From Obrimoposthia wandeli (taxonomy: Eukaryota), in the NCBI GenBank assembly GCA_977020255.1, contig CDROCS010000777.1, forward strand, positions 868,001 through 932,000: a stretch of DNA of 64,000 bases. Direction: 5' to 3'. How positions within the stretch are numbered: position 1 is the stretch's first letter; each line of letters starts with the position of its first letter. Below the pieces are notes generated by a model. The model saw only the letters and a program-made list of their open reading frames with translations. It had not been told where the DNA came from and did no database searches. Shown in pieces: positions 24,068 through 43,872 of the stretch. Made by a program: the position numbers and the translations under genes.

Positions 24068-24075
24068 TATAAAAG
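24068..24075 (+). promoter_or_regulatory. Candidate LTR TATA box (TATAAAAG)
   Basis: Consensus TATA. The last ATG before 27271 lies immediately upstream (24065), consistent with a TSS near 24100. Confidence 0.55.
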
Positions 24076-24453
24076 TTAAACTAATTAACCCAAAAGGGAC
24101 AATATCAAAAACAAAAACTTAATTAGAAGAAAAACGGTTAATTACAACCGTCGCTCAAGGATCCCAAAGGTAAGCACTTTTGCGTGCAGTAATTAAGATT
24201 TGTTTTCCAGCTGTCATTGACTGACAGAATCCAAAATCACTAGAAGAAATCGACCAGGAAACCCAAAGCAGCTGCCAGTTGATTGGCAACTAGATTCCTA
24301 CTTAAGAAGGGCCATTTCAGGGAACAAACACAATTTCGGAAGCACTCCGGAATCGACTGAAAACAAGAAATCGACTTCTAGGTAACTTTTAGTGTAAGAA
24401 GTTATAAAAATTGAAATTATCTAGGAAAATTGAAGTGAATACCTGAACTGTAA

Positions 24454-24801
24454 CCAACTGATTAAAGAATTGAGAAACGATTCCAACTGATTAAAGAATT
24501 GAGAAACGATTCCAACTGATTAAAGAATTGAGAAACGATTCCAACTGATTAAAGAATTGAGAAACGATTCCAACTGATTAAAGAATTGAGAAACGATTCC
24601 AACTGATTAAAGAATTGAGAAACGATTCCAACTGATTAAAGAATTGAGAAACGATTCCAACTGATTAAAGAATTGAGAAACGATTCCAACTGATTAAAGA
24701 ATTGAGAAACGATTCCAACTGATTGAAGAATTGAGAAACGATTCCAACTGATTAAAGAATTGAGAAACGATTCCAACTGATTGAAGAATTGAGAAACGAT
24801 T
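24454..24801. repeat. 29-bp tandem repeat x12 inside the LTR (also at ~42478-42825)
   Basis: Unit CCAACTGATT(A/G)AAGAATTGAGAAACGATT; 348 bp = 12 x 29. Confidence 0.95.
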
Positions 24802-24908
24802 CCAACTGATTGAACGATTCTGCCAGGCTCGCAAATACCACATACGGACCCTACACCGGACGTCCCACGAGTTGCTGTAACTGGTAAGCACACAGATTAG
24901 GTCCATTC

Positions 24909-25345
24909 ATTGCCCCTAGTAGGCAATTAGGTTATTTCATTACCCCTAGTTGGTAATTCTACGTTTTTAAAATAATAAGCAAATTCATTACCCCTAGCTG
25001 GTAATTAGGACCTGTGTCTCTTTAACACAATCATTACCCCTAGTTGGTAATTAGGATCGGAACTTTATTCATTGTCCCCAGCGACAATTAGGAAACTTAC
25101 CAGACGTTTTTTCCGTAAGATTCATTGTCCCTAGCTGGCAATTAGGTTCCTTCATTGCCCCTAGTTGGTAATTCGGATAAATATTCATTGTCCCTAGTAG
25201 ACAATTCGGTAAGACTCATTGTCCACTAGCTGACAATTCGATTCGCACATTGTCCGTAGTTGACAATTAGGAGCAAGTTTTATTGTCATCTGGACAATTA
25301 GGATTTTAGGAGATCCCTTGTCTACAGTAGACAATTTGGGTCGAA
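24909..25345 (+). repeat. Array of 12 short stem-loops in the LTR (duplicated in the 3' LTR)
   Basis: ATT(GCC/ACC/GTC)-N5-8-(GGC/GGT/GAC)AAT; most loops resemble CCTAG(T/C)(A/T). Confidence 0.85.
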
Positions 25346-25605
25346 CACACAGAGAGAGTAAGGAACAAAGAAATATTTGGTTAGAGATAAGAAGTAGGAG
25401 CGAAGAAAATTAAGAGAGTTGCGTTATAGATTAACCAACCTGAGTAAGAAGACTAAACCTAAGAAACTTAATCACCTGAACGTAAAATCAATACGTGGTT
25501 CATCCCCACTTCTTGTAGAGACTCACAGAAGTCCTTTAGGAATTTTATCATACTTTTTAGAAATACGTACATAAACGTATTGTGGTGTTAGTTACGTGAA
25601 TTTTG

Positions 25606-25611
25606 AATAAA
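25606..25611 (+). promoter_or_regulatory. Candidate polyadenylation signal AATAAA (functional copy expected in the 3' LTR)
   Basis: AATAAA ~205 nt before the LTR end; position fits an R/U5 border. Confidence 0.45.
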
Positions 25612-25824
25612 CAATTTCCTACATTAGAACAAGTTGTTTTACACCCTTCAGACTAAGAGACATCAAATCAATACCTTCAGATAGTACAAGAGATTAGGCA
25701 ACCATAACACTAAGTAGGCCACGACCAACTTTAAGACCTGCTTCTAATCGAACTCACGTTGGGGCCCTCCGCACACTAAGAGGCTCTATACCAAGTTTCG
25801 TATAGAAACCCCAACATATTAAAG

Positions 25825-25843
25825 TGGTGCCCCGAGTGAGGAT
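25825..25843 (+). other. Primer-binding site complementary to elongator tRNA-Met
   Basis: TGGTGCCCCGAGTGAGGAT, 8 nt after the LTR, matches 18/19 the complement of the animal tRNA-Met(e) 3' end as I recall it (TGGTGCCCCGTGTGAGGAT). Confidence 0.85.
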
Positions 25844-25869
25844 AGCTCGTCGGACACAGCGAATTCACG

Positions 25870-26852
25870 TAGAATAAGTTCAGATAAGTTTTGGATAATT
25901 GAGAATAAGTTTCAGGTAAATAGAATAAGTTCAGATAAGTTGCGGATAATTGAGAATAAGTTTCAGGTAAATAGAATAAGTACAGATATTAAGAATAAGT
26001 TTCAGATATTGAGAATAAGTTTCAGATATTAAGAATAAGTTTCAGATATTGAGAATAAGTTTCAGATAAATTGAGAATAAGTTTCAGATAAATTGAGAAT
26101 AAGTTTCAGCAGAAGAATATAGACAATTGAGAATAAGTTTCAGAAGAAGATATAAGTAAATTGAGTTAAGAATTTGATAAGTTTTAAGAAATCGGGTAGA
26201 TTTGTTCCTCGAAGTTAAGAATTTGATAAGTTTTTGAGAAATCGAGTAGATTTGTTCCTCGAAGTTAAGAATTTGATAAGTGTTAAGAAATCGGGTAGAT
26301 TTGTTCCTCAAAGTTAAGAATTTGATAAGTGTTGAGAAATCGGGTAGATTTGTTCCTCGAAGTTAAGAATTTGATAAGTTTTTGAGAAATCGAGTAGATT
26401 TGTTCCTCGAAGTTAAGAATTTGATAAGTGTTAAGAAATCGGGTAGATTTGTTCCTCGAAGTTAAGAATTTGATAAGTGTTGAGAAATCGGGTAGATTTG
26501 TTCCTCGAAGTTAAGAATTTGATAAGTTTTTGAGAAATCGAGTAGATTTGTTCCTCGAAGTTAAGAATTTGATAAGTGTTAAGAAATCGGGTAGATTTGT
26601 TCCTCGAAGTTAAGAATTTGATAAGTGTTGAGAAGTCGAGTGGATTTGTTCCTCGAGTCAGTAAATTTTATAAGTGAGAATCGAGTGGATTGATACTCGA
26701 AGTAATTAATTGAATAAGTTAAGTCGGGAGACTCTGTCCTCGAACTAATTAAAAAGATAAAATCGTAAGTGAATTTGATAAAGTGAGAATCGAGTGGATT
26801 GATACTCGAAGTAATTAATTGAATAGGTTAAGTCGGGAGACTCTGTCCTCGA
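25870..26852 (+). repeat. Leader tandem repeats: ~20-bp GAGAATAAGTTTCAGATATT units, 49-50-bp unit x10, ~109-bp unit x2
   Basis: Read directly from the sequence; the 49-50-bp units contain TCG(A/G)GTAGATTTGTTCCTCGA. Confidence 0.9.
25913..25972 (+). promoter_or_regulatory. Two candidate major splice donors (CAG|GTAAAT at 25915/16 and 25966/67)
   Basis: Consensus-like 5' splice sites ~70 and ~125 nt after the PBS, the position of retroviral major donors. Confidence 0.5.
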
Positions 26853-27150
26853 ACTAATTAAAGAGATAAAAAGTCGTAAAATAAGAATTGTGAAATAAGA
26901 TAAAAATAATAAGTGAATTGATATCGTAAACGAATACATAATTGATAAGACAACGGATAATAGAAAAGGACCCGCGTATAATACTAGAAGACAAAGTCAG
27001 ATCCCCAAGGAAGAGATAAATAATAATAAAGTTAACCGAATTGAACAGGTTCCCCAAACAGATAACAAAGTAACAGAAAAGACTAGAGTCGAAGAAAACG
27101 TATCAGAAAGAGACGTTGATCAATCAGCGGTTTCAACCGGCAGTTTTAAT

Positions 27151-29631
27151 TTGACTGAATTATTTGGTGACATAGACCAAGAAGAATTTGAAATTGCCAA
27201 TCCAGTAGTGATTGAGGAAGTTCCATTGAATAATATTGCAGAAATAGTTGAAGACGATATAGTTGCAGATATGGCTCAACCAGGAGCTCAAGCAGATATT
27301 AATGCAGGAAATAATGTAGGTGACATGAATGCCGAGCAGTTGGCACAAGCTTTAAATGCGACGTTGAGACCCAATTTTTCAGGATCATTGCAGATTACAA
27401 AGTTTAAAGGAGATGAGGAAAGTATTTGTGACTTCCTCGCAGAATATTCGAGTTGTGCAGATGTTCAAGGATGGAACGATAAAGAAAAATGTATCAGAGT
27501 ACAGGCACATTTAACCGGATTAGCACTTGAAGTGTATAAACATTTGACAGAAGCAGAACGTTTGGACTGGCCAACGTTAGAAAATGCTTTTATTGGAAAA
27601 TTGGTATTAGGAGATTTAGCCAAAGTAAATAAGCGACTCATGAGAGAACGGAAACAGAAACATGATGAAGGCGTGAATGAATACGCGTATGTTTTGAGAA
27701 CCTTGGCCGCAAGAGCGTACCCAAGAAGAATAATGAGAAATCAGGACGGTAATCCTGTAGCTCCAGAAGCACAAGCAGCGGAAAATGACCGGAACCAAAA
27801 TGAAATGGCAGAGGTCTTGTTAGATATATTTAGAGGAGGATTGAAAAAGGATATTAAAGTGTTATTAGCGGTATCGGATACAAATGATTTTGATAACGCC
27901 GTGCGAAAGGCGAGAGAGATCGAGAAAAATATAAAGAATAATGCAGCATTGGCAATCTACGCAATGACTGCAGGTGACGACGATAAGACAAAGGTCTTCG
28001 TGAATAAAACAGAACCGAGTAATTTTCAGAATCGAAATTGTGGACAAAATAAGTTTGAAAAAGTAGATGAATCCAGTAACGGAAATAGAGATAATTTCCG
28101 AAGTAGGAATCGAGATGATTCGAGAGGTAGAAATAATAGTGAGTCTTGGAACAGGAATCGAGATGATTCAAGAGGTAGAAATAATAATGATTCGTGGAAT
28201 AGAAATAGAGATGATTCCAGGAATAGATTTAATAGAGATAATTCAGGAAATCGCCAACCTTGGAGAGGAGACGATAGGAATTATAACGCCAACAGAGGAG
28301 AGCGAAGTGACTCTCGATTTGGAAATAATACAGGAAATAGTGACGGAAGATTCAATAATCGAGGAAGCGGGTTTGAATCGAATTTCCGAAGAAATGATTT
28401 TAGAGGACGCTATGATAATAGACAGAATAGTCGTCGAGTACAGTTCGAAGATGAACAAAATAAGATAGATATTCGAGGGAGAATAATGTGTTACACGTGT
28501 AAACAAATGGGTCACTATTCGAGAGACTGTACGAGAAGTAAAGAGTTCGGAACTAACAGATTTGGAAATAATAATTTCGGTAATAATAATTTTGGAAATA
28601 ATTATAGAGGATATAATTCACCTCCGCCATGGAATAGAGGTGGTGGATATACTCCACAGCCATGGAGACTGAATAATCAGTATACAGATAGACAACAGTC
28701 ACCAGGTAGATATAATAACTATGCAGATAGACAGCAAGGAGCTGAGAGATACAGTAATTACGTAGGACAGCAAGGAGCTGAGAGATATAATAATTCCGGT
28801 AGATATAATAATAATAATGTCGACAAGACAAATAGTCGAGAGAGTTCGCCGAAACCGAAAGGAAATTTTAGTTATGTAAGCGATGACAGTGATAGGAATC
28901 GCGAGACCGAGCTTCGACGCGAAATAGATTTTGAAGATAGTGATAGTAAATTTGAACGAATGTTGGGAATAATTAAAGATTCACCACATACAAAGATGGC
29001 GAATTCATCTACGTTGTCGAAACAAGAGAGAAGTCTACACTCGAGAGAAGAGATGAATGATTTAATGAATAGAATATTAGAAGCGTATGAGACACCAATA
29101 GAGAAAACGTGTAACGCACAACCTATGACTGATCATGTGGAAGCAGCGAGAAATGCTACGAGTATGGAAAATGTAAAAAAGATAATTAGTGAAGCTAAGG
29201 AGACGTTAAATCAACCGTTAGATGAAACGAGTGAAGCTCCAGAAGTTCTGGCCAAATTGCAAACAATTAAAGTGCACCGATTGGAAGAAGTGCGTGCAGA
29301 ATTGGTTAAACATAGTCATGATAACTTGGGTTACAAAGAAGTACCCCGAGGACTACTGAAAGGTTATGGTCGTTATGTACAGAGATCAAACCAAAAAGGA
29401 ACGATGAAAATTTCACTTCGATTAATTTCCGGACAGATAATACATGAAAAACTTAACGTGTATCAAACAATGAAAACGATTCGGAAAAAGTTAGCCGAGA
29501 AACTTGAAATTGATGGAATGAATATGTTGTTCCATTATAAAGGGAGATCACTAGATGATGAGGACGTACCAGTCGAGTTTGGATATCCGATAGGAAATGA
29601 ATTAGAGGAAAAATTGATGTCATCACTGTAG
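27151..29631 (+). CDS. gag: Gag: capsid-like domain, R/N/G-rich region, CCHC knuckle, C-terminal ubiquitin-like domain
   Basis: Retrotransposon-gag-like core (WPTLENAF..YAYVLRTLAARAYP..FRGGLKKDIK) and CYTCKQMGHYSRDC at 28489-28530. First ATG is 27271; the frame is open from 26917. Confidence 0.9.
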   Translation: MTELFGDIDQEEFEIANPVVIEEVPLNNIAEIVEDDIVADMAQPGAQADINAGNNVGDMNAEQLAQALNATLRPNFSGSLQITKFKGDEESICDFLAEYSSCADVQGWNDKEKCIRVQAHLTGLALEVYKHLTEAERLDWPTLENAFIGKLVLGDLAKVNKRLMRERKQKHDEGVNEYAYVLRTLAARAYPRRIMRNQDGNPVAPEAQAAENDRNQNEMAEVLLDIFRGGLKKDIKVLLAVSDTNDFDNAVRKAREIEKNIKNNAALAIYAMTAGDDDKTKVFVNKTEPSNFQNRNCGQNKFEKVDESSNGNRDNFRSRNRDDSRGRNNSESWNRNRDDSRGRNNNDSWNRNRDDSRNRFNRDNSGNRQPWRGDDRNYNANRGERSDSRFGNNTGNSDGRFNNRGSGFESNFRRNDFRGRYDNRQNSRRVQFEDEQNKIDIRGRIMCYTCKQMGHYSRDCTRSKEFGTNRFGNNNFGNNNFGNNYRGYNSPPPWNRGGGYTPQPWRLNNQYTDRQQSPGRYNNYADRQQGAERYSNYVGQQGAERYNNSGRYNNNNVDKTNSRESSPKPKGNFSYVSDDSDRNRETELRREIDFEDSDSKFERMLGIIKDSPHTKMANSSTLSKQERSLHSREEMNDLMNRILEAYETPIEKTCNAQPMTDHVEAARNATSMENVKKIISEAKETLNQPLDETSEAPEVLAKLQTIKVHRLEEVRAELVKHSHDNLGYKEVPRGLLKGYGRYVQRSNQKGTMKISLRLISGQIIHEKLNVYQTMKTIRKKLAEKLEIDGMNMLFHYKGRSLDDEDVPVEFGYPIGNELEEKLMSSL

Positions 29632-29672
29632 GACGTCAAGAGTTAGTAGATAATGAAGGATTAACCGAGATA

Positions 29673-30647
29673 TTGAATTCTGCGTTAGAAATGATAAAAA
29701 CGCCTATAGAAATTTTAGACAGTTCAAGCGAAAGCGGAGATAATGATGTAGCTGAAGTTTGGAACAAGACATCCACACCAGAACCGTACGTAGCTGAATT
29801 ACAAGACATGAATTTAGAAAATGAGTTGACAACTCCAGTGGTTGAGGTGCCACCAGAACCAGATATAATTCCAATCAGACAAGATGAAGTCACGGATACA
29901 GCCAACCAAGTGAGACAAAACGAAACCGTAACACAACTAGTAGGAGAAGACGAAGTCTCCGAGATTGTAGATTTGGATTCACCAATTTGGCATGCCGCAT
30001 ACAAAGATAGACAAGCAGAGCAAATGATGCGACAAAATGAAGAGATTGGCCATGAAGAAGGACCAAGTCAAGAGATACAGTATAATGGTGAAACGTATGA
30101 TCCAGGAGAGAATCAAACTGAGTATCAGTATTTTCGAAGAGGGCCTGGAAGACCTAGAAAAGGTGAAAGTATATTACGAAATGTTCTAACTGCACCACAA
30201 ACTGATGAAGAAAGACATCTAAGTATTGGACAGTTAGCGGCGTCATTAGAGCAGTATAGTGCAGAGAGGAATGAAGATATCAGAGGTGATATGAATTCGG
30301 AAACTCCAAGTAGTAAAGATATACTTACGGGAATTCTCAGGCAAGTGAAGCCGAAGTTGTTCAAAATGTACAGAGATGAAACAACCGATATAACAGACAA
30401 TTTGACTAAAGCAGTCAGATCACAGATGTCTGCAGTAAAGAGAATGACCGCGAATCATGTATACCATGCATCGATAGATAGATTTTATGACGGTGAAGTT
30501 TTAGCGAGATTATGTGGAAACCAGACTACAAATAAAAAGTTAATTACAGCGATCACATATCTATGTTTCCAATTGACGGAACGAACGAGCCAACCTCACG
30601 AAGTCAAACAAGGAATAAATGAAGCGATGTATTTGATCGAGAAGTAA
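29673..30647 (+). CDS. Acidic/AT-hook/putative BEN-domain segment, probably a continuation of Gag in the -1 frame
   Basis: 324-aa ORF in the element's codon style; AT-hook RRGPGRPRKG (30135-30164); frame open from 29601, overlapping the ORF1 end. Confidence 0.75.
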   Translation: MNSALEMIKTPIEILDSSSESGDNDVAEVWNKTSTPEPYVAELQDMNLENELTTPVVEVPPEPDIIPIRQDEVTDTANQVRQNETVTQLVGEDEVSEIVDLDSPIWHAAYKDRQAEQMMRQNEEIGHEEGPSQEIQYNGETYDPGENQTEYQYFRRGPGRPRKGESILRNVLTAPQTDEERHLSIGQLAASLEQYSAERNEDIRGDMNSETPSSKDILTGILRQVKPKLFKMYRDETTDITDNLTKAVRSQMSAVKRMTANHVYHASIDRFYDGEVLARLCGNQTTNKKLITAITYLCFQLTERTSQPHEVKQGINEAMYLIEK

Positions 30648-30673
30648 CTTTCGAAGATCCAAGACTTAAAAAA

Positions 30674-32311
30674 TTGGCAAAAAAGGGACTTTTTGCTATA
30701 AAAAAGGATGGTAAAGACGTAATTAAATGCCACAAGTGTAAAAAAGAACGAATTATAGACAGATATACTCTTGAGCTACCTAAGAAAATTTTACATCATG
30801 AATTTTGCGAATTTTGTACTTTTAAAAACAAAATAAAGCAAAAAGAACAGAAAACCGAATGTATAATCGAATACCAAATCACACGAAAAGAGATTTTGGC
30901 TCAACAAGACACACCGGTAGTGTCATTCGTGAGAAGGTTATATCCAAAAGAAGCAGAAAGAATCAGAGAATTGGTAGAATTAAAAATAAAAACTACGCGA
31001 AACGGATACGGATCGATTTTTGAATTACTGCGAGATAAAGATGACAGTACAATTGAAACAAAAGAGAAAGAGTACATAAATGAACTAGAATACGTACTAG
31101 AAGATCCGGAATGCGCAGTTTGCATGGTCAACAAAATAGAAGTTGCCTTTCTACCATGCGGACATGTAAGAACATGTCGGAGATGTGCGAATGAAATGGT
31201 ATCATGTCCGATTTGTCGAAGAATAATAGATCGACAAGTGAGAAACATTAGATTTCACTATCCAAACATAGGAAGTGGACTGACAGAGTGTAATAATTCG
31301 ATAAATACAATATACCATATGGGAAACATAAATGGAGCACAGCGACCAGCAGCTATCATTAGAGTAAATAATTTAAGAGTAAAAGCCTTAATTGATACAG
31401 GTGCTGTAGCTTCGATAGTAAGTGAAGACTGTTTGACAGAGGAACAGAAACGAACAATGGCAGAACCAGATGAATTCTTGGTATCGGTCAATGGAGACCC
31501 TGTAAAAGTGACGGGAATATTACCATGTACATTTATTATTGGACGTAATACGATCACTATACCAGTTAGAATTATGAAAGAATGTCCTGAACCTACAATT
31601 TTAGGAATGGATGTACTATCACAACTTAAAGGGATAAGTATTGATTTACAAGATCCAAGATTGAAGGATAGCACATCAAACAGACAAATAAACCAAATTG
31701 ATGTAATTATAGAGAATCCTATAAAAATCGGTAAAAGATCACAATTTCTCATTCAAGGTCACACATTATCAGAAGATAAAGGACCAGTTGTGTTCGAACC
31801 ATCACGAGATTTCATAGAGAAATACGAATTACCAGTTGTGAGTACAGTATGCCTGATCGAAAACCACAAAATACCAGTTAGACTGATGAATACAACCAAC
31901 AATGACATCCTATTATACAGAGGAATGAGGTTGGGAAAGATAGCACAGATGGAGAATTCCACTGTATGCGCTATGAAACTCGATAAAGATACGAATGATT
32001 ACGAAGAAATAGTAATCCAATCAGAAAGACTGACAACTAGAGAAAAGAAACAATTACTTGATCTAATACATAAATTTCCAAAAGTAATTGCAAAAAATCC
32101 ATATGACATAGGAGAAACACCTGTCATAAAACATACAATACCACTGACAGAAGACAAAGTAGTCAGAAGAAGACCATACCGAGTACCATTACAATTACAA
32201 GATGAAGTAAAAAGTCAGATCGAAGATATGTCTAAAACAGGAGTAATTAGACCGAGTTTTTCGCCATTCTCAGCACCTGTGGTGTTGGTAAAAAGAAGGA
32301 TGGGAAAATGA
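30674..32311 (+). CDS. pol: BIR-like + IAP-type RING + aspartic protease + start of RT
   Basis: C3HC4 RING at 31112-31216, protease LIDTGAVASIVS (DTG at 31394), RT N-terminus RRRPYRVP..IRPSFSPFSAPVVLVK. Frame open from 30623. Confidence 0.9.
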   Translation: MAKKGLFAIKKDGKDVIKCHKCKKERIIDRYTLELPKKILHHEFCEFCTFKNKIKQKEQKTECIIEYQITRKEILAQQDTPVVSFVRRLYPKEAERIRELVELKIKTTRNGYGSIFELLRDKDDSTIETKEKEYINELEYVLEDPECAVCMVNKIEVAFLPCGHVRTCRRCANEMVSCPICRRIIDRQVRNIRFHYPNIGSGLTECNNSINTIYHMGNINGAQRPAAIIRVNNLRVKALIDTGAVASIVSEDCLTEEQKRTMAEPDEFLVSVNGDPVKVTGILPCTFIIGRNTITIPVRIMKECPEPTILGMDVLSQLKGISIDLQDPRLKDSTSNRQINQIDVIIENPIKIGKRSQFLIQGHTLSEDKGPVVFEPSRDFIEKYELPVVSTVCLIENHKIPVRLMNTTNNDILLYRGMRLGKIAQMENSTVCAMKLDKDTNDYEEIVIQSERLTTREKKQLLDLIHKFPKVIAKNPYDIGETPVIKHTIPLTEDKVVRRRPYRVPLQLQDEVKSQIEDMSKTGVIRPSFSPFSAPVVLVKRRMGK

Positions 32312-35300
32312 GATTCTGTATAGATTTCAGAGAACTGAACAAGATCACAAGAAAAGATGTGTATCCATTACCTAGAATCGAAGAGATGCTCGATAAATTG
32401 GGTAATTCAGATTATTTTACGACATTGGATTTGCAGAGTGGATACTGGCAAATCGAGATAGAGGAAGAAGATAAACACAAAACAGCCTTTTCCTGCGGAG
32501 ATGGATTATACGAATGCGAAAAGATGCCATTCGGACTGACAGGAGCTCCAGCAACATTTCAGCGTTGCATGAATTTTGTACTCGCATCGTGTGCAAACAC
32601 GATGGTGTATATTGATGACATAATAATATTTTCGAAAACGTTCGAAGAACATCTAAAAAATCTTGAAGTTGTATTTAAAAGACTGGAAAACGCTAAATTA
32701 AAAGTTAAACCTACAAAATGTGTATGGGCTAAAGAGCGAGTAACATTTTTAGGACATATAGTATCGAAAGAAGGCATTCGTCCTGATCCGGCAAAGATCG
32801 AGAAAGTAAAAGCGCATTTAGCGCCAAAGACTGTTAAGGAGATACAGAGTTTTTTAGGTCTTGCGAATTATTATAGACGATTTGTTGAACATTTTTCAGA
32901 TATAGCAACACCATTGAGAAAGTTGACGAGAAAAGATGAGAAGTTCATATGGGGAGAAGAAGCCCAACAAGCGTTCGAGCATTTAAAAGAAAGACTGATA
33001 AAAGCACCAATATTAGCGTTTCCAGATATAAACCGACAGTTCATACTCATGACAGATGCAAGTAACTATGCTGTAGGAGCAGTATTGGGACAAGAGGATG
33101 ACGAAGGAAGAGAACACGTCATTGCGTATGCGAGTAGAGGATTAAACAGAGCCGAAAGAGGATACTCTGTTATCGAAAAGGAATGTCTAGCCATAGTGTA
33201 TTCATGTAGACAGTACAGACACTATTTGCTAGGACAAAAAGTATTCCTGTATACAGATCACAAACCACTACAGTTCTTATATAAACATAGAGATGAGATG
33301 AGTAGATTAAACAGATGGTTTCTAAAATTGGCCGAATTCGATCTAGAAATCCGTTATAGAACCGGAAAGTCGAATGGCAACGCAGATTGTTTATCGAGAT
33401 TGACAAATGTAGATGAGAAAGGAAACATAATTCCAGAAGAAGATGAAACCAATGACCAAAAAGGAGAAGCAAATCTACTGACGATTTTGCTAAAGACGGG
33501 TAAAATAGACAAAGAGATCATCAAAGAACAGAAAGAAGATGAAGAACTGAGTCTAATCAAAGAATTGCTGGTGAAAGGAGATCTAAACGATGAAATGACG
33601 AAAAAATACTCGATAAAAGAAGGAATCTTGTATATTGTCAATAATGTCGGAAAGATAGTAGTAGTAATTCCGAAGTCATTGAAAACAGCAGTGATGATCC
33701 AGTATCACGACGGAACACTGGGAGGACATCTGTCAGGGCGAAAGACAATAGCCAGAATCAAAGAGAAGTACCATTGGGATGGTATGGAAGACGACATAAA
33801 ACAATGGTGTAAACAATGTAAAGTATGTTTAACCAGAAAAGACACCGGAACTCGTACTAAAGTTCCGTTGAAACCAATGCCAGTTCCCTTGGCACCAATG
33901 GAATTCACAGCGATGGATATATTGGGACCATTGAGAGAATCAAGTAAAGGAAACAAGTATGTCATAGTATTTACGGACTACATGACGAGATGGGTAGAAG
34001 CATATCCCATGCAGAACCAGAAAGCTGAAACAATAGCGCAAATCTTAGTGGAAGAGATAATATTTCGATACGGAGTGCCTAGAAAGTTGTTAACGGATCA
34101 AGGTAAGAACTTCACTGGAGAAGTCATAAAAGCAGTATCGAAGATATTCGGAATCATGAAGTTACAAACTTCACCATATCACCCACAGACAGATGGTCTG
34201 GTGGAAAGGTTTAATAAAACTTTATGTATGATGGTACAATCCTATTGCTCAGACAAGCAAGAGGATTGGGATAAATATTTACCTTCATGTTTATATGCTT
34301 ACAGGAATTCAGTTCGAGAGGCGACAGGTCACACACCATTCTATCTGATGTATCTCAGACAGAACAATATGCCAATGGATCTGGAGTGGACCGAGCCAAC
34401 ATCCCAGTACCTAGAAACTGAACAATACATTGTCGTCATGAAGGAAAGATTACAAGATGCTTGGACCAAAGCCGGATTGAAGTTGAAATTCAATCAAGAA
34501 GGTTACAAGGAACAATACGACAAAAAAGCAAAACCACATGAATTTAGAGTCGGAGATCAAGTGATGATATTTTATCCAGTCATCGAACCAGGTCTATCGT
34601 TTAAACTTCATAGACCATACAAAGGACCATACAAGGTGATCCAGACAACCTCAACAAATTTGAAAGTAATCAACGAAGAGAATCGGAACAAAGAACCGAT
34701 GATTGTACATGCAAATCGATGCAAATTAGTACCAAATAAAGATAATGCGTCACGATATGAGTTAAGATCACAGAAATCGAAGCCAAATACCAATACCATT
34801 AAACTTACACGAATGGTAAGTGATCGGAACTACATAAACATGATGACGAGTGGTAGCGAGAAAAAACCAGCGAGAATTGGTATGCTCAGAATGAAGTGCC
34901 AAGAGGAAAAGGAAGTAATCCGACACATCGCACCACAAGAGATATTAGAAGAAGACGAAGAGATAATAGTTGTTTTCGAAAAAACACAACCGACAGATGT
35001 GGCTAAAGAAGTCATTGTGAAAGATGCACTGACAAACGAATTTCTATGCGAACTTAGAGTGTCATATTACGACGGAAATACATTAGTCGCATCACTTTAT
35101 CAAAATTCCAATGTGTTTACGACTGAGAAAGTGATAATCGAAATCACATTGACACCAAACATAGTTGCATGGCAGAACTATGACAGTACTGAAGCAGGAC
35201 TAGCCAGTCAGGAAGAGAAGGAACCGGCCGGTGGTCACATACTGCATGGTACACCAAAAAGACTCAAACAAGAATACCACGATGTAATAATGGTATTACG

Positions 35301-38300
35301 TAATTCACATGGGAAAAGAGATATCATGAGAGTCCATTTAATCGACGCTGACACTGAAAAGATAATTTGTCAGATGGACACCAAATACTTTGATGGAAAG
35401 ACAATTGTATGTTGTATACCAGAATCTCACCGATTAGAGACAGATCAAACGGAAGTATCTGTAAGGTTGAGCGTAATAGAAGGATTCCATTCGCCAACCC
35501 ATCCGGAAGTGACTAACAATAAAATCATCAAAGCAACGGCAGAATTACGCATTGACAGCGGATACCGGAAGTGGGAAGCTAAAAATAAAAAGCCACAAAG
35601 AATCAATATGATCCGAGAACAAGTGACCAGCTCAATCCAGCCAAAATATCATGCTGAAATAGTATCATCCGCGCCAAGTGTAATTACATCGATAAACGAC
35701 GAAATTATAATTTTACTAAAAAATCGATGGCCGTCATCAACCGAGATACGAGTAAACTTAATTAATTATGCGAAGACACCGATATCTAAGCTGAATGTTA
35801 CCTATTTTGATGGATTGTCCATCATGGGTAAATTGGAAACAATTGTCATGTGCTATGGAGCACAGTTCCAAGTTGAGATACTTAAAGATAGTGTAATACC
35901 GTATCCGATTCACAAATACGAAGGGGAAATCAACCCAATTATTCTAACACCTTCATTAATTTCAGTTCAGACAGACATACCAGAATACCCTTCGAGCGAG
36001 TCTAGTGAAGACAGCGAACCGGAAAGTAACGATACAGAATCAACAGAATCCGAAGATAACATAATAGAGCGATTCGGAAGAACCATGGAGGTTGAATTCG
36101 CTAAAGAGAACAGAAAAAGACAAAACATAGAATTCGTGAAACAGAATATACAAGAAAGACGAATTAAATCTGCAGAAGAGACCGAGTCGGAAGAAGACTC
36201 AACAAAGGAACAGACATCAGAGACAAAGATGAATATCCCTCCAGCAATACGAATGCTGAGAGGAAAGAAACTGGCAAAACTAACTAACATCGACGACCAG
36301 ATAGAGAAGAGATTAGAAAGACTAAAACTTGAAGAGTCAGAATTAATGCCACCAATGAGTGAGATCATTCCAGGTAAGTTATACCTCGGAAATGTGGAGG
36401 ATGCCACAGATGAAAAGAAACTGTTGGAACAAGGGATAACATATGTGATCAACGTTACAATGAATCACAAATCGCAATATCAGACGATCAGAGCTATGAC
36501 ATTAAGAGTAAAAGACTCAATGGACGCTAATCTTCTCGAATGGTTCGTAGAAACAAACGAAATACTTCACAGAGAACTCCGAAACCAAGGAAAAGTGTTG
36601 GTACATTGTCAGAAAGGAATTTCTCGATCAGCAACCCTAGTATTAGCATATCTAATAAAGACTAGACGAATGCAGGTACTAGAAGCGTTAAAATACCTAC
36701 AGGAGAGAAGAAGTATTGCAAACCCAAATCTTAATTTTTTGGGACAGTTGGCAAATTACCAACTTCTGTTGCAAGAACAAAGACGGATGGACGACATTCC
36801 TGAGGATCCAAAGGAAAAGAATTTCCTCCAAGCATTATCACTGACTGGGTTATTTTTAGCTGGAGTCGACAAAATTACACAGATAATGCCAAAAGTATTT
36901 TTATGTCATCCAGGAGATATAGATACTGCTGGATTAAAGTTCCACAGTATCAACCGAGTAATCAACATTGTTGAAGTCGGAAACGAGATAATTAGTCTGT
37001 GTCAAAATACTGAAGATGACACCACTCGATACATACATGCTTCCAATCGAGAGATAAACGATGCGCAACAACATCTGACGAAATTGACTCAAACCATCCA
37101 AGCTGAAGTCACAGAAGGAAACGGCGTTCTGATATATCAGAAAAAAGGTACAATGTTAGCGCCTACCATAGGTGTATCCTTGTTGGTAGAGTACCATGGT
37201 CACACGCCAGAAGAAGCGATGGTCTACATCAAACAGAATAGACCAAATACGGAATTCAAACCGTTACTCGTTCGAGAAATAGAGAAATACACCGAAAAGA
37301 GGAAGCAACAACGAGAAACAAATGAAGCTACAACAACAGTGCCCAGCTTTCAATACCAAAGATTGCTAGCGATAGGCTTGTTAAGTTGTTTAATGCCGAT
37401 AACGGGAGCACAGGAGATAGGCTCCAACCACGGAAATAGTTCCTGGTTCAACGAAATCCACAATTACACCATACAGTACCATACGCCGGCACTGATGATG
37501 CTATTAGTGTTGTTAGGACTAATTGATGTGTGGATCATCCGAAAATGTCTTCGATCTATGAGAACCGACAGTAAAAGATTTCAGTTTGTAAAGATGAAAA
37601 GACCAAATGGACCAACGAACAAAGTGCTTGTGTATCTAGACGAAAGGATCGAAGATAACATAGTAAATGAAGCGATATTTTACCCACAAAACAGAATACT
37701 GAAGCAATTCCGAATAGATTATGAAGCTGACCGACAACGCACACTTGACCAAATATCAACAACATTCGCCGGATGCAAGCGAAGAAAACGAGTTGTAAAG
37801 GAAATACAAAAAGATGCTGATACAAAAGGACCAACGTATATATTCAACGGCGATGTCATCAAAACACGTGAGTATGGAAGTAAGAGAGTGATAATTGAAA
37901 CGATGGAAGGACATAAAACATGCTTGTCCGCCAAAAATGGATTCGGAAAGTTGACGATACAAGGTAAACCAGTACAGTTGATTATCGGAAGAGATGGAAT
38001 CGAGGAGATGTCAAAACAACGACAAACAACAAAACGAACCAATCAGAAACAGATATCTCTCAAACGATTGATAATTAAAACCCTTTGCAAAAGGTCAGTC
38101 AAGGCCCTGTGCACCGTTGCACAAGGATTGATTTATGGAGTAGTAATTGGATTGGTACTGCAAGCCATGCCAACCAGTAAAGCCGAATTGATGACACTAT
38201 CCGAATATAATTTACATTTGAGAAATCTAGACAACACCCTAGAAATAATCAAGACATCCCACAGTAGAGCCGTGATGATCATGTGTGTAAAAGGATGTCC

Positions 38301-40026
38301 AGGACGAATGTGTATAGTCCCAGCAACCGAAATGATAACACTTAATGGACATTATGGAGTTAGTGTTGTCACATGTGAAGACTACATATTTGGACAAACT
38401 AAAATAGTGCTTCTCAGTGACACGTCCAACCAAAGTGCACACAAATTTAAGATATTAACCATCAAGAGTAAAGGAATACCAGCAGTACGTTATGGTATTC
38501 TAGAATTAGTTAATCCAATACTGGCACTGATCATTGGATTTATAATATTAATATTACTCATCTTGTTTTGTTGTTCAAAGATAGAGTCGAGATCAAAAAA
38601 GAAACGTCATGATCTCGCAAGACGAACAGGTCAAATGAACTTACAGAAATTCAACACAATCATACCAAGACCACCATTTCTAGATGAACCAGCACCAGAG
38701 TACCAGCCAACGATATATGAACACATAGAGGAAAGACCGTACTATATGAGTAATTTGACTTGTTTCATTGAAGTTCCTGAGTTTAGGAATCGAACGATCA
38801 TAGGAATCATGCTGATCGTACAAATCACCACTACCAAGGCTAGTTATGAGATCATGATCAGTAAATGGAGACAAGACGTAATACGGGCAATATACATAGA
38901 AATTCCCTTACTAAAAACAAATCACGTAGTAGACATTCATCTACAGACGTCAGCAACTGACAATATCGATCAGAAATTGTATGTCATCCGACAGGTCAGA
39001 ATAAAAATCGACCAAAATACACCCGTTTACAATTTAATATTATTGCATCATGAAAGAGTGTTATACCTACGGATAACAATATCAAAGAGGAAGCGGATTA
39101 TCCAAAGTATCCGAACAAAGTCATTAATATTACCTAGAGATGAGCGCATCTGGAAAATTGTTGACAGGATTATGATCACAGGTAGACGACGTAAAGCCGT
39201 ATGGAATTCCGTTAGGATATTTTTCAGATTGCTAGAAACTGACAGCGTGACAGTAATGTGTCCCAACCCAGATGGCGTAATCAGATTCGAAATCCAAAGC
39301 CAAATGTTAGTACCACATTTTAACACAGAATGTCTGTGTAATCGAATTGCCAGTAATTCTACAGAGACCTCGACCATAATCATGATAATAACAGGTGAAA
39401 TATTCTACATAACTCTAAGATACCAGAACCGTCGATTTCGCAGATACGGTATAAGTATCAAACCCAGGAAAATCATTCCCAGAAGACCAATCCTAGTCAA
39501 AAAGAAGGCAAAGGTAATCGAAAGTAAACGACATTCCAAGAAACCGACAGTGATCAAAACAAAGACAGAAGCGAAAGAAAAAGAGTCCAATCCCAGAAAC
39601 CAAAGTACAATTATTAAGAGGACAAGAGTGAGGGGAACGATCCCACTAGATCCCAAACATCATTTCCAATCCAAAATAATAATACCTGTTCCATCAGAAA
39701 CAAAACACCCAAATCCCCGAATTTTTAGAAAATCGGACATAATACATGGAAACCGATCAAAACCCATGGAAATATCATTCGAACCGACAAACAACAAAAT
39801 GAAGTATGATTATAAAACATCAGACAGCGGAATAACAGCAGTCAATGCCCTAATTGGAATGGCCGTAGTGTCAACAGCGGTGGTTCTACTTACAATCGTG
39901 TGCGTAAAAGGCAGTCAAGTATGCCCAGGAATACGACGAAAATGCGAAGGATTGCGATGCTGTGACACACCCATCATGGAGGAAGTGGAATTACGACCCT
40001 TACCTCCACCTCCCATCAAGATATGA
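32308..40026 (+). CDS. pol: Pol (RT, RNase H, integrase) fused to ~1730 aa of accessory domains (3 Ig-like repeats, DSP, pseudo-DSP, membrane region)
   Basis: YIDD at 32608; RNase H TDAS..EKECLAI..YTDH; IN HHCC, D-D-E core and GPY; no stop until 40026. Confidence 0.97.
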   Translation: MRFCIDFRELNKITRKDVYPLPRIEEMLDKLGNSDYFTTLDLQSGYWQIEIEEEDKHKTAFSCGDGLYECEKMPFGLTGAPATFQRCMNFVLASCANTMVYIDDIIIFSKTFEEHLKNLEVVFKRLENAKLKVKPTKCVWAKERVTFLGHIVSKEGIRPDPAKIEKVKAHLAPKTVKEIQSFLGLANYYRRFVEHFSDIATPLRKLTRKDEKFIWGEEAQQAFEHLKERLIKAPILAFPDINRQFILMTDASNYAVGAVLGQEDDEGREHVIAYASRGLNRAERGYSVIEKECLAIVYSCRQYRHYLLGQKVFLYTDHKPLQFLYKHRDEMSRLNRWFLKLAEFDLEIRYRTGKSNGNADCLSRLTNVDEKGNIIPEEDETNDQKGEANLLTILLKTGKIDKEIIKEQKEDEELSLIKELLVKGDLNDEMTKKYSIKEGILYIVNNVGKIVVVIPKSLKTAVMIQYHDGTLGGHLSGRKTIARIKEKYHWDGMEDDIKQWCKQCKVCLTRKDTGTRTKVPLKPMPVPLAPMEFTAMDILGPLRESSKGNKYVIVFTDYMTRWVEAYPMQNQKAETIAQILVEEIIFRYGVPRKLLTDQGKNFTGEVIKAVSKIFGIMKLQTSPYHPQTDGLVERFNKTLCMMVQSYCSDKQEDWDKYLPSCLYAYRNSVREATGHTPFYLMYLRQNNMPMDLEWTEPTSQYLETEQYIVVMKERLQDAWTKAGLKLKFNQEGYKEQYDKKAKPHEFRVGDQVMIFYPVIEPGLSFKLHRPYKGPYKVIQTTSTNLKVINEENRNKEPMIVHANRCKLVPNKDNASRYELRSQKSKPNTNTIKLTRMVSDRNYINMMTSGSEKKPARIGMLRMKCQEEKEVIRHIAPQEILEEDEEIIVVFEKTQPTDVAKEVIVKDALTNEFLCELRVSYYDGNTLVASLYQNSNVFTTEKVIIEITLTPNIVAWQNYDSTEAGLASQEEKEPAGGHILHGTPKRLKQEYHDVIMVLRNSHGKRDIMRVHLIDADTEKIICQMDTKYFDGKTIVCCIPESHRLETDQTEVSVRLSVIEGFHSPTHPEVTNNKIIKATAELRIDSGYRKWEAKNKKPQRINMIREQVTSSIQPKYHAEIVSSAPSVITSINDEIIILLKNRWPSSTEIRVNLINYAKTPISKLNVTYFDGLSIMGKLETIVMCYGAQFQVEILKDSVIPYPIHKYEGEINPIILTPSLISVQTDIPEYPSSESSEDSEPESNDTESTESEDNIIERFGRTMEVEFAKENRKRQNIEFVKQNIQERRIKSAEETESEEDSTKEQTSETKMNIPPAIRMLRGKKLAKLTNIDDQIEKRLERLKLEESELMPPMSEIIPGKLYLGNVEDATDEKKLLEQGITYVINVTMNHKSQYQTIRAMTLRVKDSMDANLLEWFVETNEILHRELRNQGKVLVHCQKGISRSATLVLAYLIKTRRMQVLEALKYLQERRSIANPNLNFLGQLANYQLLLQEQRRMDDIPEDPKEKNFLQALSLTGLFLAGVDKITQIMPKVFLCHPGDIDTAGLKFHSINRVINIVEVGNEIISLCQNTEDDTTRYIHASNREINDAQQHLTKLTQTIQAEVTEGNGVLIYQKKGTMLAPTIGVSLLVEYHGHTPEEAMVYIKQNRPNTEFKPLLVREIEKYTEKRKQQRETNEATTTVPSFQYQRLLAIGLLSCLMPITGAQEIGSNHGNSSWFNEIHNYTIQYHTPALMMLLVLLGLIDVWIIRKCLRSMRTDSKRFQFVKMKRPNGPTNKVLVYLDERIEDNIVNEAIFYPQNRILKQFRIDYEADRQRTLDQISTTFAGCKRRKRVVKEIQKDADTKGPTYIFNGDVIKTREYGSKRVIIETMEGHKTCLSAKNGFGKLTIQGKPVQLIIGRDGIEEMSKQRQTTKRTNQKQISLKRLIIKTLCKRSVKALCTVAQGLIYGVVIGLVLQAMPTSKAELMTLSEYNLHLRNLDNTLEIIKTSHSRAVMIMCVKGCPGRMCIVPATEMITLNGHYGVSVVTCEDYIFGQTKIVLLSDTSNQSAHKFKILTIKSKGIPAVRYGILELVNPILALIIGFIILILLILFCCSKIESRSKKKRHDLARRTGQMNLQKFNTIIPRPPFLDEPAPEYQPTIYEHIEERPYYMSNLTCFIEVPEFRNRTIIGIMLIVQITTTKASYEIMISKWRQDVIRAIYIEIPLLKTNHVVDIHLQTSATDNIDQKLYVIRQVRIKIDQNTPVYNLILLHHERVLYLRITISKRKRIIQSIRTKSLILPRDERIWKIVDRIMITGRRRKAVWNSVRIFFRLLETDSVTVMCPNPDGVIRFEIQSQMLVPHFNTECLCNRIASNSTETSTIIMIITGEIFYITLRYQNRRFRRYGISIKPRKIIPRRPILVKKKAKVIESKRHSKKPTVIKTKTEAKEKESNPRNQSTIIKRTRVRGTIPLDPKHHFQSKIIIPVPSETKHPNPRIFRKSDIIHGNRSKPMEISFEPTNNKMKYDYKTSDSGITAVNALIGMAVVSTAVVLLTIVCVKGSQVCPGIRRKCEGLRCCDTPIMEEVELRPLPPPPIKI
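36355..36775 (+). other. Dual-specificity phosphatase domain (catalytic motif intact) within the polyprotein
   Basis: SEIIPGKLYLG..GITYVINVT..VLVHCQKGISRSATLVLAYL..RRSIANPNLNFLGQL; HCxxGxxRS at 36604-36630. Confidence 0.95.
36874..37290 (+). other. Second DSP-fold domain lacking the catalytic Cys/Arg (pseudophosphatase)
   Basis: ITQIMPKVFL..INRVINIV..GNGVLIYQKKGTMLAPTIGVSLLVEYHGHTPEEAMVYIKQNRP parallels domain 1, with the HCxxGxxR motif degenerate. Confidence 0.8.
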
Positions 40027-40149
40027 TGAGTCAGAGGAGGTTGTAGATAAATTAGTGTGTGAAATATGTAGAAATATCTAGAAGCGATTGTACAAATAGT
40101 AGCAGTATATAAAACTCATGTAGAAATTAATCATCATCATGTATTTAGA

Positions 40150-40449
40150 ATGGCCGAAGAATGCCCAATATGTTTAGAAGATCTAACCGAACGAAGAACA
40201 AGACCCGAAACCTGCAACCATTTACACCACGAGGAATGTTTATCGACATGGATCAGAACTTATGGACAGTTCGGACACCCAACATACCCTCGTTGCCCTA
40301 TATGCAGAAGACAATTCGCAAGATTCGTCATGTTAGAACCCAACCAAAGGGATGTATATGTACAGGTGGTATTCTGCTGGAAGAATTTCGGAGAGTGTTG
40401 GTGTTATTACTGTTTGTCAGATCGACAAAATCAGACCACTTTTGTGTAA
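40150..40449 (+). CDS. Small RING-H2 protein 1 with C-terminal Cys cluster
   Basis: CPIC..CNHLHHEEC..W..CPIC, then CWKNFGECWCYYC. Confidence 0.9.
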   Translation: MAEECPICLEDLTERRTRPETCNHLHHEECLSTWIRTYGQFGHPTYPRCPICRRQFARFVMLEPNQRDVYVQVVFCWKNFGECWCYYCLSDRQNQTTFV

Positions 40450-40509
40450 AGATCACACAACCACCAGTCCTCAATCGAGCCCAAATTCAACATCAACCCT
40501 CCCACAGTA

Positions 40510-40815
40510 ATGTCTGGAGAATGTTCCATCTGCTACGAGAGCATCGTGGACTTCTACACCAAGCCCAACAACTGCGACCACCTTTTCCACGTCGAATGCC
40601 TCGAGACGTGGATCCCCATCGCAAACAGCAACAACCCCCTCGACTTCCCAACCTGCCCGATGTGCAGAGCGACCTTCTCAGTACACTACGTGTACAACCA
40701 AGACATCCTCCAAGCAGTGGTACCCATCGTACACTGCTGGAAAACCATCTGCGATTGCTGGTGCTCGTTCTGCGTGGAAGAGCGAAGCACAGGCCAGCCC
40801 AATCCCCAACAATAA
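40510..40815 (+). CDS. Small RING-H2 protein 2 (paralogue of protein 1)
   Basis: CSIC..CDHLFHVEC..W..CPMC, then CWKTICDCWCSFC. Confidence 0.9.
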   Translation: MSGECSICYESIVDFYTKPNNCDHLFHVECLETWIPIANSNNPLDFPTCPMCRATFSVHYVYNQDILQAVVPIVHCWKTICDCWCSFCVEERSTGQPNPQQ

Positions 40816-41148
40816 TCGAAGGTAACTTTCTGACTTGAACATGACATCATGAACTACCCTGTGTATCGCATACCGCGATAAATTAGCTACCATAATTGTA
40901 ATCATAATTATATAATCTTGTGAACTGTAAATTGACCATTACCATTTTTATGTATGATGTTTAACTGAAATTGTAATTATTATACTGAATTTCTAAAAAG
41001 ACAATTTTTATGCTTAGTGTGAATGCGTAAACATGCCTAAAATCGAAACAAAACTCGGTAGGATTAGATAACTAAGGATTCATTTTGAAACAAAATTTAA
41101 ATTAACGATGAGAACGGTGAACCCCAAATTGAAAGGAGTCATTTTCTC

Positions 41149-41649
41149 ATGCAGATGTTGTGCTCCGTATGCATGGAGAAGATTTGGGCGGCATCAGCAT
41201 CCCCTGTCGGCTGCCGCCACAAGTTCCACGAATCCTGCCTATATACTTGGGCCCGACTTCGACCCGGACAAGTCAATTGCCCCTATTGCCGCACTCCCTT
41301 CGCGGAATGGACACTACAGTGTCGAGGGCGCCACAAGGGCACCCATTCGCTCACCAGCTGTATTGGTGGCGAGCACTGCCAGTGCCCCGACTGTATCGCG
41401 CGCCGTCGCGATGCAAAACTCGCCCTCCGCGAGAAATACCGGTCAACCCGTGACCCCCGCTCATGGCAGCGTGGCCGTCAAATATGGCTCAAGAATCGCG
41501 GAGTACACGGGCGGTACACGACCATTTTTCACCCGAGCCAACACCTCACCATGCGCCAGCAGATGATACTGTACGATGGCGGCCCACCATCGTATCCAGA
41601 ACTACCACTGGAGCAGGTCTTGCTGTTTTTGAGAGACCGGAACAATTGA
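41149..41649 (+). CDS. Small RING-H2 protein 3 with basic C-terminal extension (true start may be ATG 41155)
   Basis: CSVC..CRHKFHESC..W..CPYC, then CIGGEHCQCPDC. Confidence 0.9.
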   Translation: MQMLCSVCMEKIWAASASPVGCRHKFHESCLYTWARLRPGQVNCPYCRTPFAEWTLQCRGRHKGTHSLTSCIGGEHCQCPDCIARRRDAKLALREKYRSTRDPRSWQRGRQIWLKNRGVHGRYTTIFHPSQHLTMRQQMILYDGGPPSYPELPLEQVLLFLRDRNN

Positions 41650-41912
41650 CAAATCCCTGACAATCACCCTTGATCCTTTCCCTTGTATAATTTTTTGTTG
41701 TCGTAGTAATAATGTATAAATTGAGACATGCTCCAACTTATGCATTATAATTTCCCACTAAAAAACCGGGTTTTGGAAAATTTTTTTTTGGGCATGTTTG
41801 TTGAGGTTGAATGATTGATTTTGTAGGGATGAACCTAAAATCAACAGCCAAAGGCTTATTAAGTAAAATCGATACGTTCCGGGGACGTAACTTTTTTGGA
41901 ACCCCCGAGGTA

Positions 41913-43839
41913 TGTTAAGGTTGAGAATTAAGAAAATTAAATATTTTAGTTGATTAAATACTAAAATAAAAAAGCCTTGAAAGCAAGGTCGAAAATCAAA
42001 TTAAAATATTAAGTTGAATTTTAGAAGTAAAATTAGTGAAATATTAGGGTAAAATTAGGAGGACCACGAAGGTCGTGTATTATGCGAAAATGTATAAAAG
42101 TTAAACTAATTAACCCAAAAGGGACAATATCAAAAACAAAAACTTAATTAGAAGAAAAACGGTTAATTACAACCGTCGCTCAAGGATCCCAAAGGTAAGC
42201 ACTTTTGCGTGCAGTAATTAAGATTTGTTTTCCAGCTGTCATTGACTGACAGAATCCAAAATCACTAGAAGAAATCGACCAGGAAACCCAAAGCAGCTGC
42301 CAGTTGATTGGCAACTAGATTCCTACTTAAGAAGGGCCATTTCAGGGAACAAACACAATTTCGGAAGCACTCCGGAATCGACTGAAAACAAGAAATCGAC
42401 TTCTAGGTAACTTTTAGTGTAAGAAGTTATAAAATTGAAATTATCTAGGAAAATTGAAGTGAATACCTGAACTGTAACCAACTGATTAAAGAATTGAGAA
42501 ACGATTCCAACTGATTAAAGAATTGAGAAACGATTCCAACTGATTAAAGAATTGAGAAACGATTCCAACTGATTAAAGAATTGAGAAACGATTCCAACTG
42601 ATTAAAGAATTGAGAAACGATTCCAACTGATTAAAGAATTGAGAAACGATTCCAACTGATTAAAGAATTGAGAAACGATTCCAACTGATTAAAGAATTGA
42701 GAAACGATTCCAACTGATTAAAGAATTGAGAAACGATTCCAACTGATTGAAGAATTGAGAAACGATTCCAACTGATTAAAGAATTGAGAAACGATTCCAA
42801 CTGATTGAAGAATTGAGAAACGATTCCAACTGATTGAACGATTCTGCCAGGCTCGCAAATACCACATACGGACCCTACACCGGACGTCCCACGAGTTGCT
42901 GTAACTGGTAAGCACACAGATTAGGTCCATTCATTGCCCCTAGTAGGCAATTAGGTTATTTCATTACCCCTAGTTGGTAATTCTACGTTTTTAAAATAAT
43001 AAGCAAATTCATTACCCCTAGCTGGTAATTAGGACCTGTGTCTCTTTAACACAATCATTACCCCTAGTTGGTAATTAGGATCGGAACTTTATTCATTGTC
43101 CCCAGCGACAATTAGAAACTTACCAGACGTTTTTCCGTAAGATTCATTGTCCCTAGCTGGCAATTAGGTTCCTTCATTGCCCCTAGTTGGTAATTCGGAT
43201 AAATATTCATTGTCCCTAGTAGACAATTCGGTAAGACTCATTGTCCACTAGCTGACAATTCGATTCGCACATTGTCCGTAGTTGACAATTAGGAGCAAGT
43301 TTTATTGTCATCTGGACAATTAGGATTTTAGGAGATCCCTTGTCTACAGTAGACAATTTGGGTCGAACACACAGAGAGAGTAAGGAACAAAGAAATATTT
43401 GGTTAGAGATAAGAAGTAGGAGCGAAGAAAATTAAGAGAGTTGCGTTATAGATTAACCAACCTGAGTAAGAAGACTAAACCTAAGAAACTTAATCACCTG
43501 AACGTAAAATCAATACGTGGTTCATCCCCACTTCTTGTAGAGACTCACAGAAGTCCTTTAGGAATTTTATCATACTTTTTAGAAATACGTACATAAACGT
43601 ATTGTGGTGTTAGTTACGTGAATTTTGAATAAACAATTTCCTACATTAGAACAAGTTGTTTTTACACCCTTCAGACTAAGAGACATCAAATCAATACCTT
43701 CAGATAGTACAAGAGATTAGGCAACCATAACACTAAGTAGGCCACGACCAACTTTAAGACCTGCTTCTAATCGAACTCACGTTGGGGCCCTCCGCACACT
43801 AAGAGGCTCTATACCAAGTTTCGTATAGAAACCCCAACA
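41913..43839 (+). repeat. 3' LTR (1927 bp)
   Basis: Copy of 23888-25816 with four 1-bp homopolymer-length differences found by eye. Confidence 0.98.
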
Positions 43840-43872
43840 TATGAAACTCTTTTTTATTTGGTTTATATTGTT

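Follow-up and report, generated by a model that had tools for sequence, protein, structure and literature searches.

A spliced intron within a cassette of three RING-finger genes in a Burro-like Gypsy element of Obrimoposthia wandeli

The window, i.e. the whole 64,000-nucleotide stretch of Obrimoposthia wandeli DNA analysed here, contains a Gypsy-type LTR element. It has the LTRs, target-site duplication, primer-binding site (PBS), gag and order of enzymes (protease, reverse transcriptase, RNase H, integrase) of the Ty3/Gypsy group, and the only differences between its two LTRs are four single-base indels. In addition to these enzymes, Pfam profiles recovered a gag zinc knuckle, a RING, a dual-specificity phosphatase and three separate 3' ORFs, all of which are RING fingers, as a preliminary description of this DNA had proposed. 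The main features are:

23888-43839, + strand: Gypsy-type LTR element, delimited by near-identical LTRs and the target-site duplication TATG (23884-23887 and 43840-43843)
23888-25816, + strand: 5' LTR, TG..CA, from LTR pair comparison
27271-40026, + strand: gag, ubiquitin-like, RING, protease, reverse transcriptase, RNase H, integrase and dual-specificity phosphatase (Pfam)
40150-40449, + strand: RING1, 99 amino acids (Pfam)
40510-40815, + strand: RING2, 101 amino acids, paralog of RING1 (Pfam)
41155-41649, + strand: RING3, 164 amino acids from the conserved ATG (Pfam); -1 frame open to 41453
41913-43839, + strand: 3' LTR, from LTR pair comparison

The family is very large: a first look yielded 5229 candidates, and all 40 of those scored are 93–100% identical. 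The LTR-to-LTR distance is mostly 21.0–21.7 kb among the copies listed (100 of 215), and 18.0 kb in the window copy; shorter spacings in C596, C1071 and C1412 proved to be nested, tandem or deleted elements. Full copies contain about 3.3 kb near 30.6 kb that the window copy lacks, with an env-like region, a second protease-like stretch and a BIR. In copy L081 this segment includes a mononegavirus-type fusion domain (PF24664, E 9e-51 and 2.5e-33, split over two frames there), together with BIR and RING domains found by Pfam, both of which lie within the polyprotein of full copies. The gap in the window copy sits at an 8-nt microhomology (30636-30643) despite the young LTRs, and its polyprotein frame is broken at about 29.6 and 32.3 kb, which may be an assembly error. 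The ubiquitin/SUMO-like stretch is a weak match under the cut-off (PF00240, E 0.011), and no MATH, BCL2, ankyrin or dUTPase domain was matched in the element sequences searched with Pfam profiles. Outside the genome, the best pol matches are 50–56% identical; the closest (P0001, 56%) carries the label of a bacterial MAG protein and is probably host DNA inside a metagenome.

The gag frame reaches about 118 codons 5' of its first ATG (26917-27270) and is kept with in-frame indels in other subfamilies; a non-AUG start of gag is likely. A CAG-atATG sequence at gag, considered as a fourth acceptor, is not conserved and was therefore left out of the acceptor count. Before the 3' LTR (41880-41912), a conserved hairpin-like GGGGACGTAAC..GAACCCCCG stands in place of a plain polypurine tract. 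A piggyBac-type transposase fragment (PF13843) lies elsewhere in the window, at 5551-6033. The host is probably a flatworm; one host myosin clusters with those of trematodes (SH-aLRT 85, in a quick tree that carries a long-branch warning).

From their Pfam RING matches, the three 3' products are predicted to be small RING ubiquitin ligases. RING1 and RING2 have a C-terminal CW..C.CWC.FC motif in common, and the C-terminal half of RING3 is exchanged among subfamilies. Searches for full-length relatives of RING1 and RING2 outside the genome gave no word-sharing candidate and only RING-core matches among the 150 listed, and a protein atlas search returned generic viral RING clusters. A structure model of RING2 (pLDDT 45) was discarded.

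The sequences before the three starts read as previously described, namely TATTTAG/aATG at 40148/40150, CCCTCCCACAG/taATG at 40507/40510 and TTTTCTCATGCAG/ATG at 41154/41155. Two features had been overlooked. One is a donor at 40821; the other is an ATG at 41149, in frame and 5' of the third acceptor, and this ATG is replaced in several subfamilies. The cassette has the following additional features:

40118-40148, + strand: acceptor region A1, likely, before RING1 (conservation)
40490-40507, + strand: acceptor A2, weak, before RING2; its AG is part of a -1 frame Ser codon (splice model, -1 frame)
40822-41154, + strand: 333-nt intron, AAG/GTAACT..CATGCAG, missing from five genomic loci
40161-40821, + strand: first part of an overlapping -1 ORF of uncertain function (ORF reading)

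Genomic copies made from spliced RNA were searched for with patterns that exclude the native neighbouring letter. Five loci (L165, L169, L251, L295 and L297) carry an intron-less joint from the end of RING2 to the RING3 ATG, exact in all except L169, which is off by one letter. Two of the 11 RING3 starts without C at -3 are joined to the RING2 end (L165 and L169), and 51 of the 88 donor-side variants listed were examined, of which four (L165, L251, L295 and L297) are joined exactly to the RING3 ATG. The missing piece is exactly 40822-41154, from GT to AG, with AG as the only microhomology, and the flanks of the five loci match at least four subfamilies. Both loci for which full maps were made, L165 and L169, are complete elements that agree at 16 of 16 upstream differences and so may represent one event; the remaining loci differ on both sides, giving at least four events. 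Both intron ends are also retained, at a length of 304–346 nt, in 12 other copies, and they are kept in a sister family. The RING3 acceptor is therefore used and the intron is spliced, its partner being the donor at 40821, six bases after the RING2 stop. Donors of the 5' leader had been put forward for this role; the sole demonstrated partner is local. After splicing, the RING3 start lies six bases 3' of the RING2 stop, and RING1, RING2 and RING3 are all in one frame.

The joined form is rare and nearly all copies keep the intron (RING3 starts were not counted in total), so the genomic RNA used for copying would be mostly unspliced. Among 12 variant RING3 starts, five are preceded by CCAG and two by ACAG; CCAG also ends the exon at 36373, and the five could be joins to that donor or point variants. 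The site at 36373 (CAG/GTAAGT, at the start of the phosphatase domain) is the best-scoring donor of the element. Four sequencing runs gave flat, very deep, DNA-like cover, in which the RING sites are not among the 15 listed of 261 joints; these runs carry no weight either way. Intron-less genomic copies constitute splice evidence without RNA, and the method is applicable to any high-copy element.

A splice model trained on 65 of 110 host myosin introns ranked the RING3 acceptor 1, the RING1 acceptor 52 and the RING2 acceptor 181 among the 1372 AGs of the internal region, corresponding to the 85th, 46th and 17th percentiles of host acceptors. An equally good AG lies within 0–2 nt of an ATG at 12/353, 18/434 and 15/337 ATGs (3.4–4.5%, with a threshold chosen post hoc). 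Because RING1 and RING2 are paralogous, two independent events are to be counted, not three; the AG-before-ATG sites are unlikely by chance. A sister family, about 75% identical, retains TATTTAG-A-ATG and CCCACAG-YA-ATG, and keeps the CAG-ATG of RING3 behind a different upstream sequence with CTAAC.

A1 is well conserved and likely real as judged by sequence comparison. Its identity to nine sister-family copies is 0.96, 0.67 and 0.86 in the three 10-nt bins nearest RING1, falling to about 0.3 at distances of more than 50 nt upstream (ungapped, indels depressing the far bins). Position -3 is C in 33 of the 49 copies without T there, and all 13 non-T copies examined are native TATTCAG. Splicing at A1 would remove the ATGs at 40066, 40118 and 40139. 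The location of the A2 AG within a Ser codon of the -1 frame weakens the RING2 acceptor. Of the three alternatively spliced acceptors claimed earlier, then, that of RING3 is used, that of RING1 is conserved like an acceptor, and that of RING2 is weak.

No joined copy was found at A1 in 30 of 50 and 30 of 49 listed variant places examined, nor at A2 in 53 of 59 variants examined or among 100 listed of 521. This disfavours the pol donors, whose products would be copied like the RING2-RING3 form; it is little guide to the use of LTR donors or a spliced leader, since their products would lack the PBS. TTCCAG, the sequence at the strong pol donor 36373, also stands before one RING1 start, which is a contiguous variant without a junction, and a junction 31849-40504 in L075 and a 100-nt deletion in L074 and L219 are ordinary deletions, not GT-AG. 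The spacer between pol and RING1 (40027-40148) contains five TGTA in 122 nt, ten times the density in pol, and these are retained in the sister family.

The 5' end of the element contains the following features:

24068-24074, + strand: TATA-like box, with a putative start site
24170-24210, + strand: predicted mini-intron 1, 41 nt, AAG/GTAAGC..TTTCCAG; donor at the 91st percentile of host donors
24382-24424, + strand: predicted mini-intron 2, 43 nt (host splice model, diverged-LTR comparison)
24883-24890, + strand: LTR donor 3, putatively used, 3' of the tandem array; candidate partner acceptor 25560; AATAAA 25606
25825-25841, + strand: PBS, from the sequence, presumably for tRNA-Met
25913-25972, + strand: two CAG/GTAAAT donor-like sites after the PBS, at the 49th percentile of host donors; not conserved

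No ATG occurs on the + strand from 24066 to 27270, up to gag, which extends the ATG-free first exon of the preliminary description; the four non-array parts contain 0 ATG, compared with a mean of 23 and a minimum of 15 in 200 shuffles. Diverged LTRs with non-alignable interiors retain the TATA box, strong donors and acceptors 39–46 nt downstream, and 10 of 12 have no ATG after the TATA box, versus 19–32 CAT. Mini-intron 1 is still present in all 100 variant copies listed (of 215), and the LTR mini-introns are predicted only. LTR ends are conserved, and the interior (24100-25500, with the tandem array unit and exons) is swapped among subfamilies (L116, L118, L122, L130, L084 and L077); between the mini-introns, another TATA-like sequence, CTATATAAG, is found repeatedly. 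The LTR donor given earlier at 24169 is correct, and those at 24380 and 24882 were one base short (24381 and 24883). The CAG/GTAAAT sites after the PBS are indeed present at 25915 and 25966; they occur in three of the five leaders of the family examined (the window, L082 and L121), are missing from L072 and L123, and differ by one letter from the unit of a tandem repeat. The conserved donors sit inside the LTR, not after the PBS.

The splice also completes a 318-codon overlapping -1 frame, open across families and, in the intron-less copy L224, across RING1-RING3. Over RING1 this frame is more open than in synonymous shuffles (P 0.004–0.035 in eight of 10 copies); in these 10 copies RING2 shows no significant excess, and RING3 in most cases none. 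The sister family shows no majority stop over 220 columns. Stop-creating changes number 1/33 and 0/33 versus 35/279 and 26/279 (P 0.08 and 0.048), and a looser count including decayed copies has stop-creating transitions at 13/36 sites, with stops arising freely. No amino-acid constraint was detected (19/385 versus 62/874), and the frame has no match in Pfam, and elsewhere only RING shadow matches under 0.9. The prospect that it encodes a functional protein is about one in three.

Using a motif derived from the Macrostomum spliced leader (SL) described in PMC8629364, we obtained 71 matches, versus 35 in the control, about half of them from one repeat family. One locus (L163, G000:C1071:1393392-1393431, minus strand) has a 43-nt leader ending in ATG, followed by GTAAG, an unpaired Sm-type site and three hairpins; it has no match in Rfam and is a candidate flatworm-type SL RNA gene. 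An SL RNA-like gene in the host makes trans-splicing a live rival. Spacers in flatworm operons are reported to be <300 nt, acceptors are often common to cis- and trans-splicing, and retroelement loci with leader pieces are on record (PMC12582326). The cassette has spacers of 123 nt (pol-RING1) and 60 nt (RING1-RING2), with 339 nt before RING3.

How RING1 and RING2 are reached admits several answers. An even chance may be given to cis-splicing, in which a middle exon opened at A1 or A2 and ending at the shared donor 40821 would be joined to the ATG-free leader exon from the 5' LTR. The mRNAs would be leader-RING1-RING2-RING3, leader-RING2-RING3 and possibly leader-RING3, each translated from the ATG 0–2 nt behind its acceptor, and ribosomes that reinitiate six bases past the RING2 stop could also yield RING3. 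The RING ligases would then act on host proteins, beside the BIR-RING and phosphatase domains of the element. The 39–46 nt of the LTR mini-introns match the short class of host introns (36–61 nt, 23 of 65 in the myosin set). However, each LTR donor has its own nearby partner acceptor, 51 internal AGs outscore A1 and A2 scores low, and scanning to gag would account for the ATG-free leader just as well. That the CAG/GTAAAT sites after the PBS are instead the major donor, feeding all three acceptors and suppressing 5'-LTR polyadenylation as in HIV-1, is very improbable. These sites score like median host donors and follow the LTR AATAAA at a distance of about 300 nt (195 nt in HIV-1; PMC3694450), but two of the five leaders lack this variant of the repeat unit, and the TTTCAG junction expected of them was found in none of 50 RING1, 100 listed RING2 and 12 RING3 variant starts, although such RNA keeps the PBS. 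Little weight attaches to the missing junctions, because packaging may exclude spliced RNA.

Alternatively, though with a clearly smaller likelihood than cis-splicing to the leader, the cassette may be an operon, in which the acceptors of RING1 and RING2 would receive a host SL in trans and only the 333-nt intron would be spliced in cis. SL-tagged RNAs could not serve as templates for copying by the LTR route, which fits the absent joined copies, and the five TGTA of the pol-RING1 spacer, UGUA motifs in the RNA, also count in its favour. The trematode-side myosin and the resemblance of L163 to the Macrostomum SL RNA (PMC8629364) agree with this reading, as do spacers of 123 and 60 nt, which are under the 300-nt operon threshold (PMC12582326); against it, the terminal AUG of the leader is out of frame with RING1 and RING2, AATAAA is absent from the spacers, strong cis donors lie upstream, and the SL-like gene is one candidate locus recognized from its sequence. 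It is rather improbable that only the RING2-RING3 intron is spliced, with RING1 and RING2 reached by an internal promoter, leaky scanning, reinitiation or one-frame read-through, and the A2 AG kept as overlapping-frame coding sequence. The single frame of RING1-RING3 after splicing, the open 60-nt spacer (length unchanged in 35 of 45 mapped copies), the T/C variant after the A2 AG that is synonymous in the -1 frame, and the failure to find a joined copy at either A1 or A2 among the variants examined are all compatible with it. Yet the TATA sequence TATATAAAA at 40106, tried as an internal promoter, is TATGTAAAA or absent in other subfamilies, in keeping with the earlier preference for splicing over this box; most copies have an out-of-frame ATG 11 nt before RING1, A1 is conserved though non-coding, and wobble bias is absent from the RING1-RING2 spacer in both frames (7/7/7). 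The preliminary interpretation is thus partly supported overall.

Among known elements, the planarian giant Gypsy Burro (GYPSM1) shares with ours the Gypsy core, a mononegavirus-type env between gag and protease, BIR and RING domains, very many copies, a probable flatworm host and possibly a ubiquitin-like stretch, weakly matched here (PMC6431247). However, Burro is over 30 kb, and ours about 23 kb; the Burro MATH, BCL2, ankyrin and dUTPase are unmatched here by Pfam, and our element has a phosphatase after integrase and three RING genes before the 3' LTR (PMC6431247). Because size and several domains mismatch that description, we call the element Burro-like rather than a Burro member. The review's description of Burro does not mention splicing of accessory ORFs (PMC6431247), and a spliced RING cassette in elements of this kind was not encountered in the literature searched, in which subscription journals are thinly covered; the original Burro paper may describe one.

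In errantiviruses, splicing of the leader to the 3' ORF is the rule for env (10.1101/2023.08.03.551782); Bagy2, Ogre, CRR and BARE have single subgenomic splices (PMC3735527), and Retand has extra 3' ORFs (PMC11963269). As in these errantiviruses and plant Gypsy elements, a 3' ORF or inter-ORF intron is handled by the host spliceosome, and the genomic RNA is unspliced (10.1101/2023.08.03.551782; PMC3735527). Unlike these, with one subgenomic splice per element, ours has an intron within the accessory cassette, probable extra acceptors and predicted LTR mini-introns. Like flatworm SL operons, the cassette has same-strand genes <300 nt apart, an acceptor right before each start and an SL-like gene in the host (PMC12582326, PMC8629364), but it lies inside a retroelement with upstream cis donors. 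If a spliced leader serves the RING sites, it would be a retroelement operon.

A used acceptor before an accessory ORF, as in HIV-type systems, is found here for RING3. The cassette also resembles complex retroviruses such as HIV-1 and foamy virus in having several acceptors ahead of small 3' genes, a downstream intron common to them and an overlapping frame that spans the junction. With its donors inside R, the element is closer to foamy virus than to HIV-1 (PMC3694450). In contrast to both, it has Ty3/Gypsy enzymes and only a putative 5' partner, lacks a conserved donor 3' of the PBS and has no known regulatory protein. It is possible, though we regard it as doubtful, that an env-carrying Gypsy lineage independently evolved a 3' programme like that of complex retroviruses, with three RING ligases and a two-exon, overprinted, Arg/Pro-rich protein of 318 amino acids like Tat/Rev, its first acceptors possibly served by a spliced leader. 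These questions bear on how giant flatworm elements express genes that meddle with the host yet keep unspliced RNA for copying. The splicing known from Gypsy elements yields a single subgenomic RNA, in most cases for env; a RING ubiquitin-ligase cassette with an internal intron, extra acceptors, LTR mini-introns and a junction-spanning frame would, if true, represent convergence on retroviral regulatory complexity.
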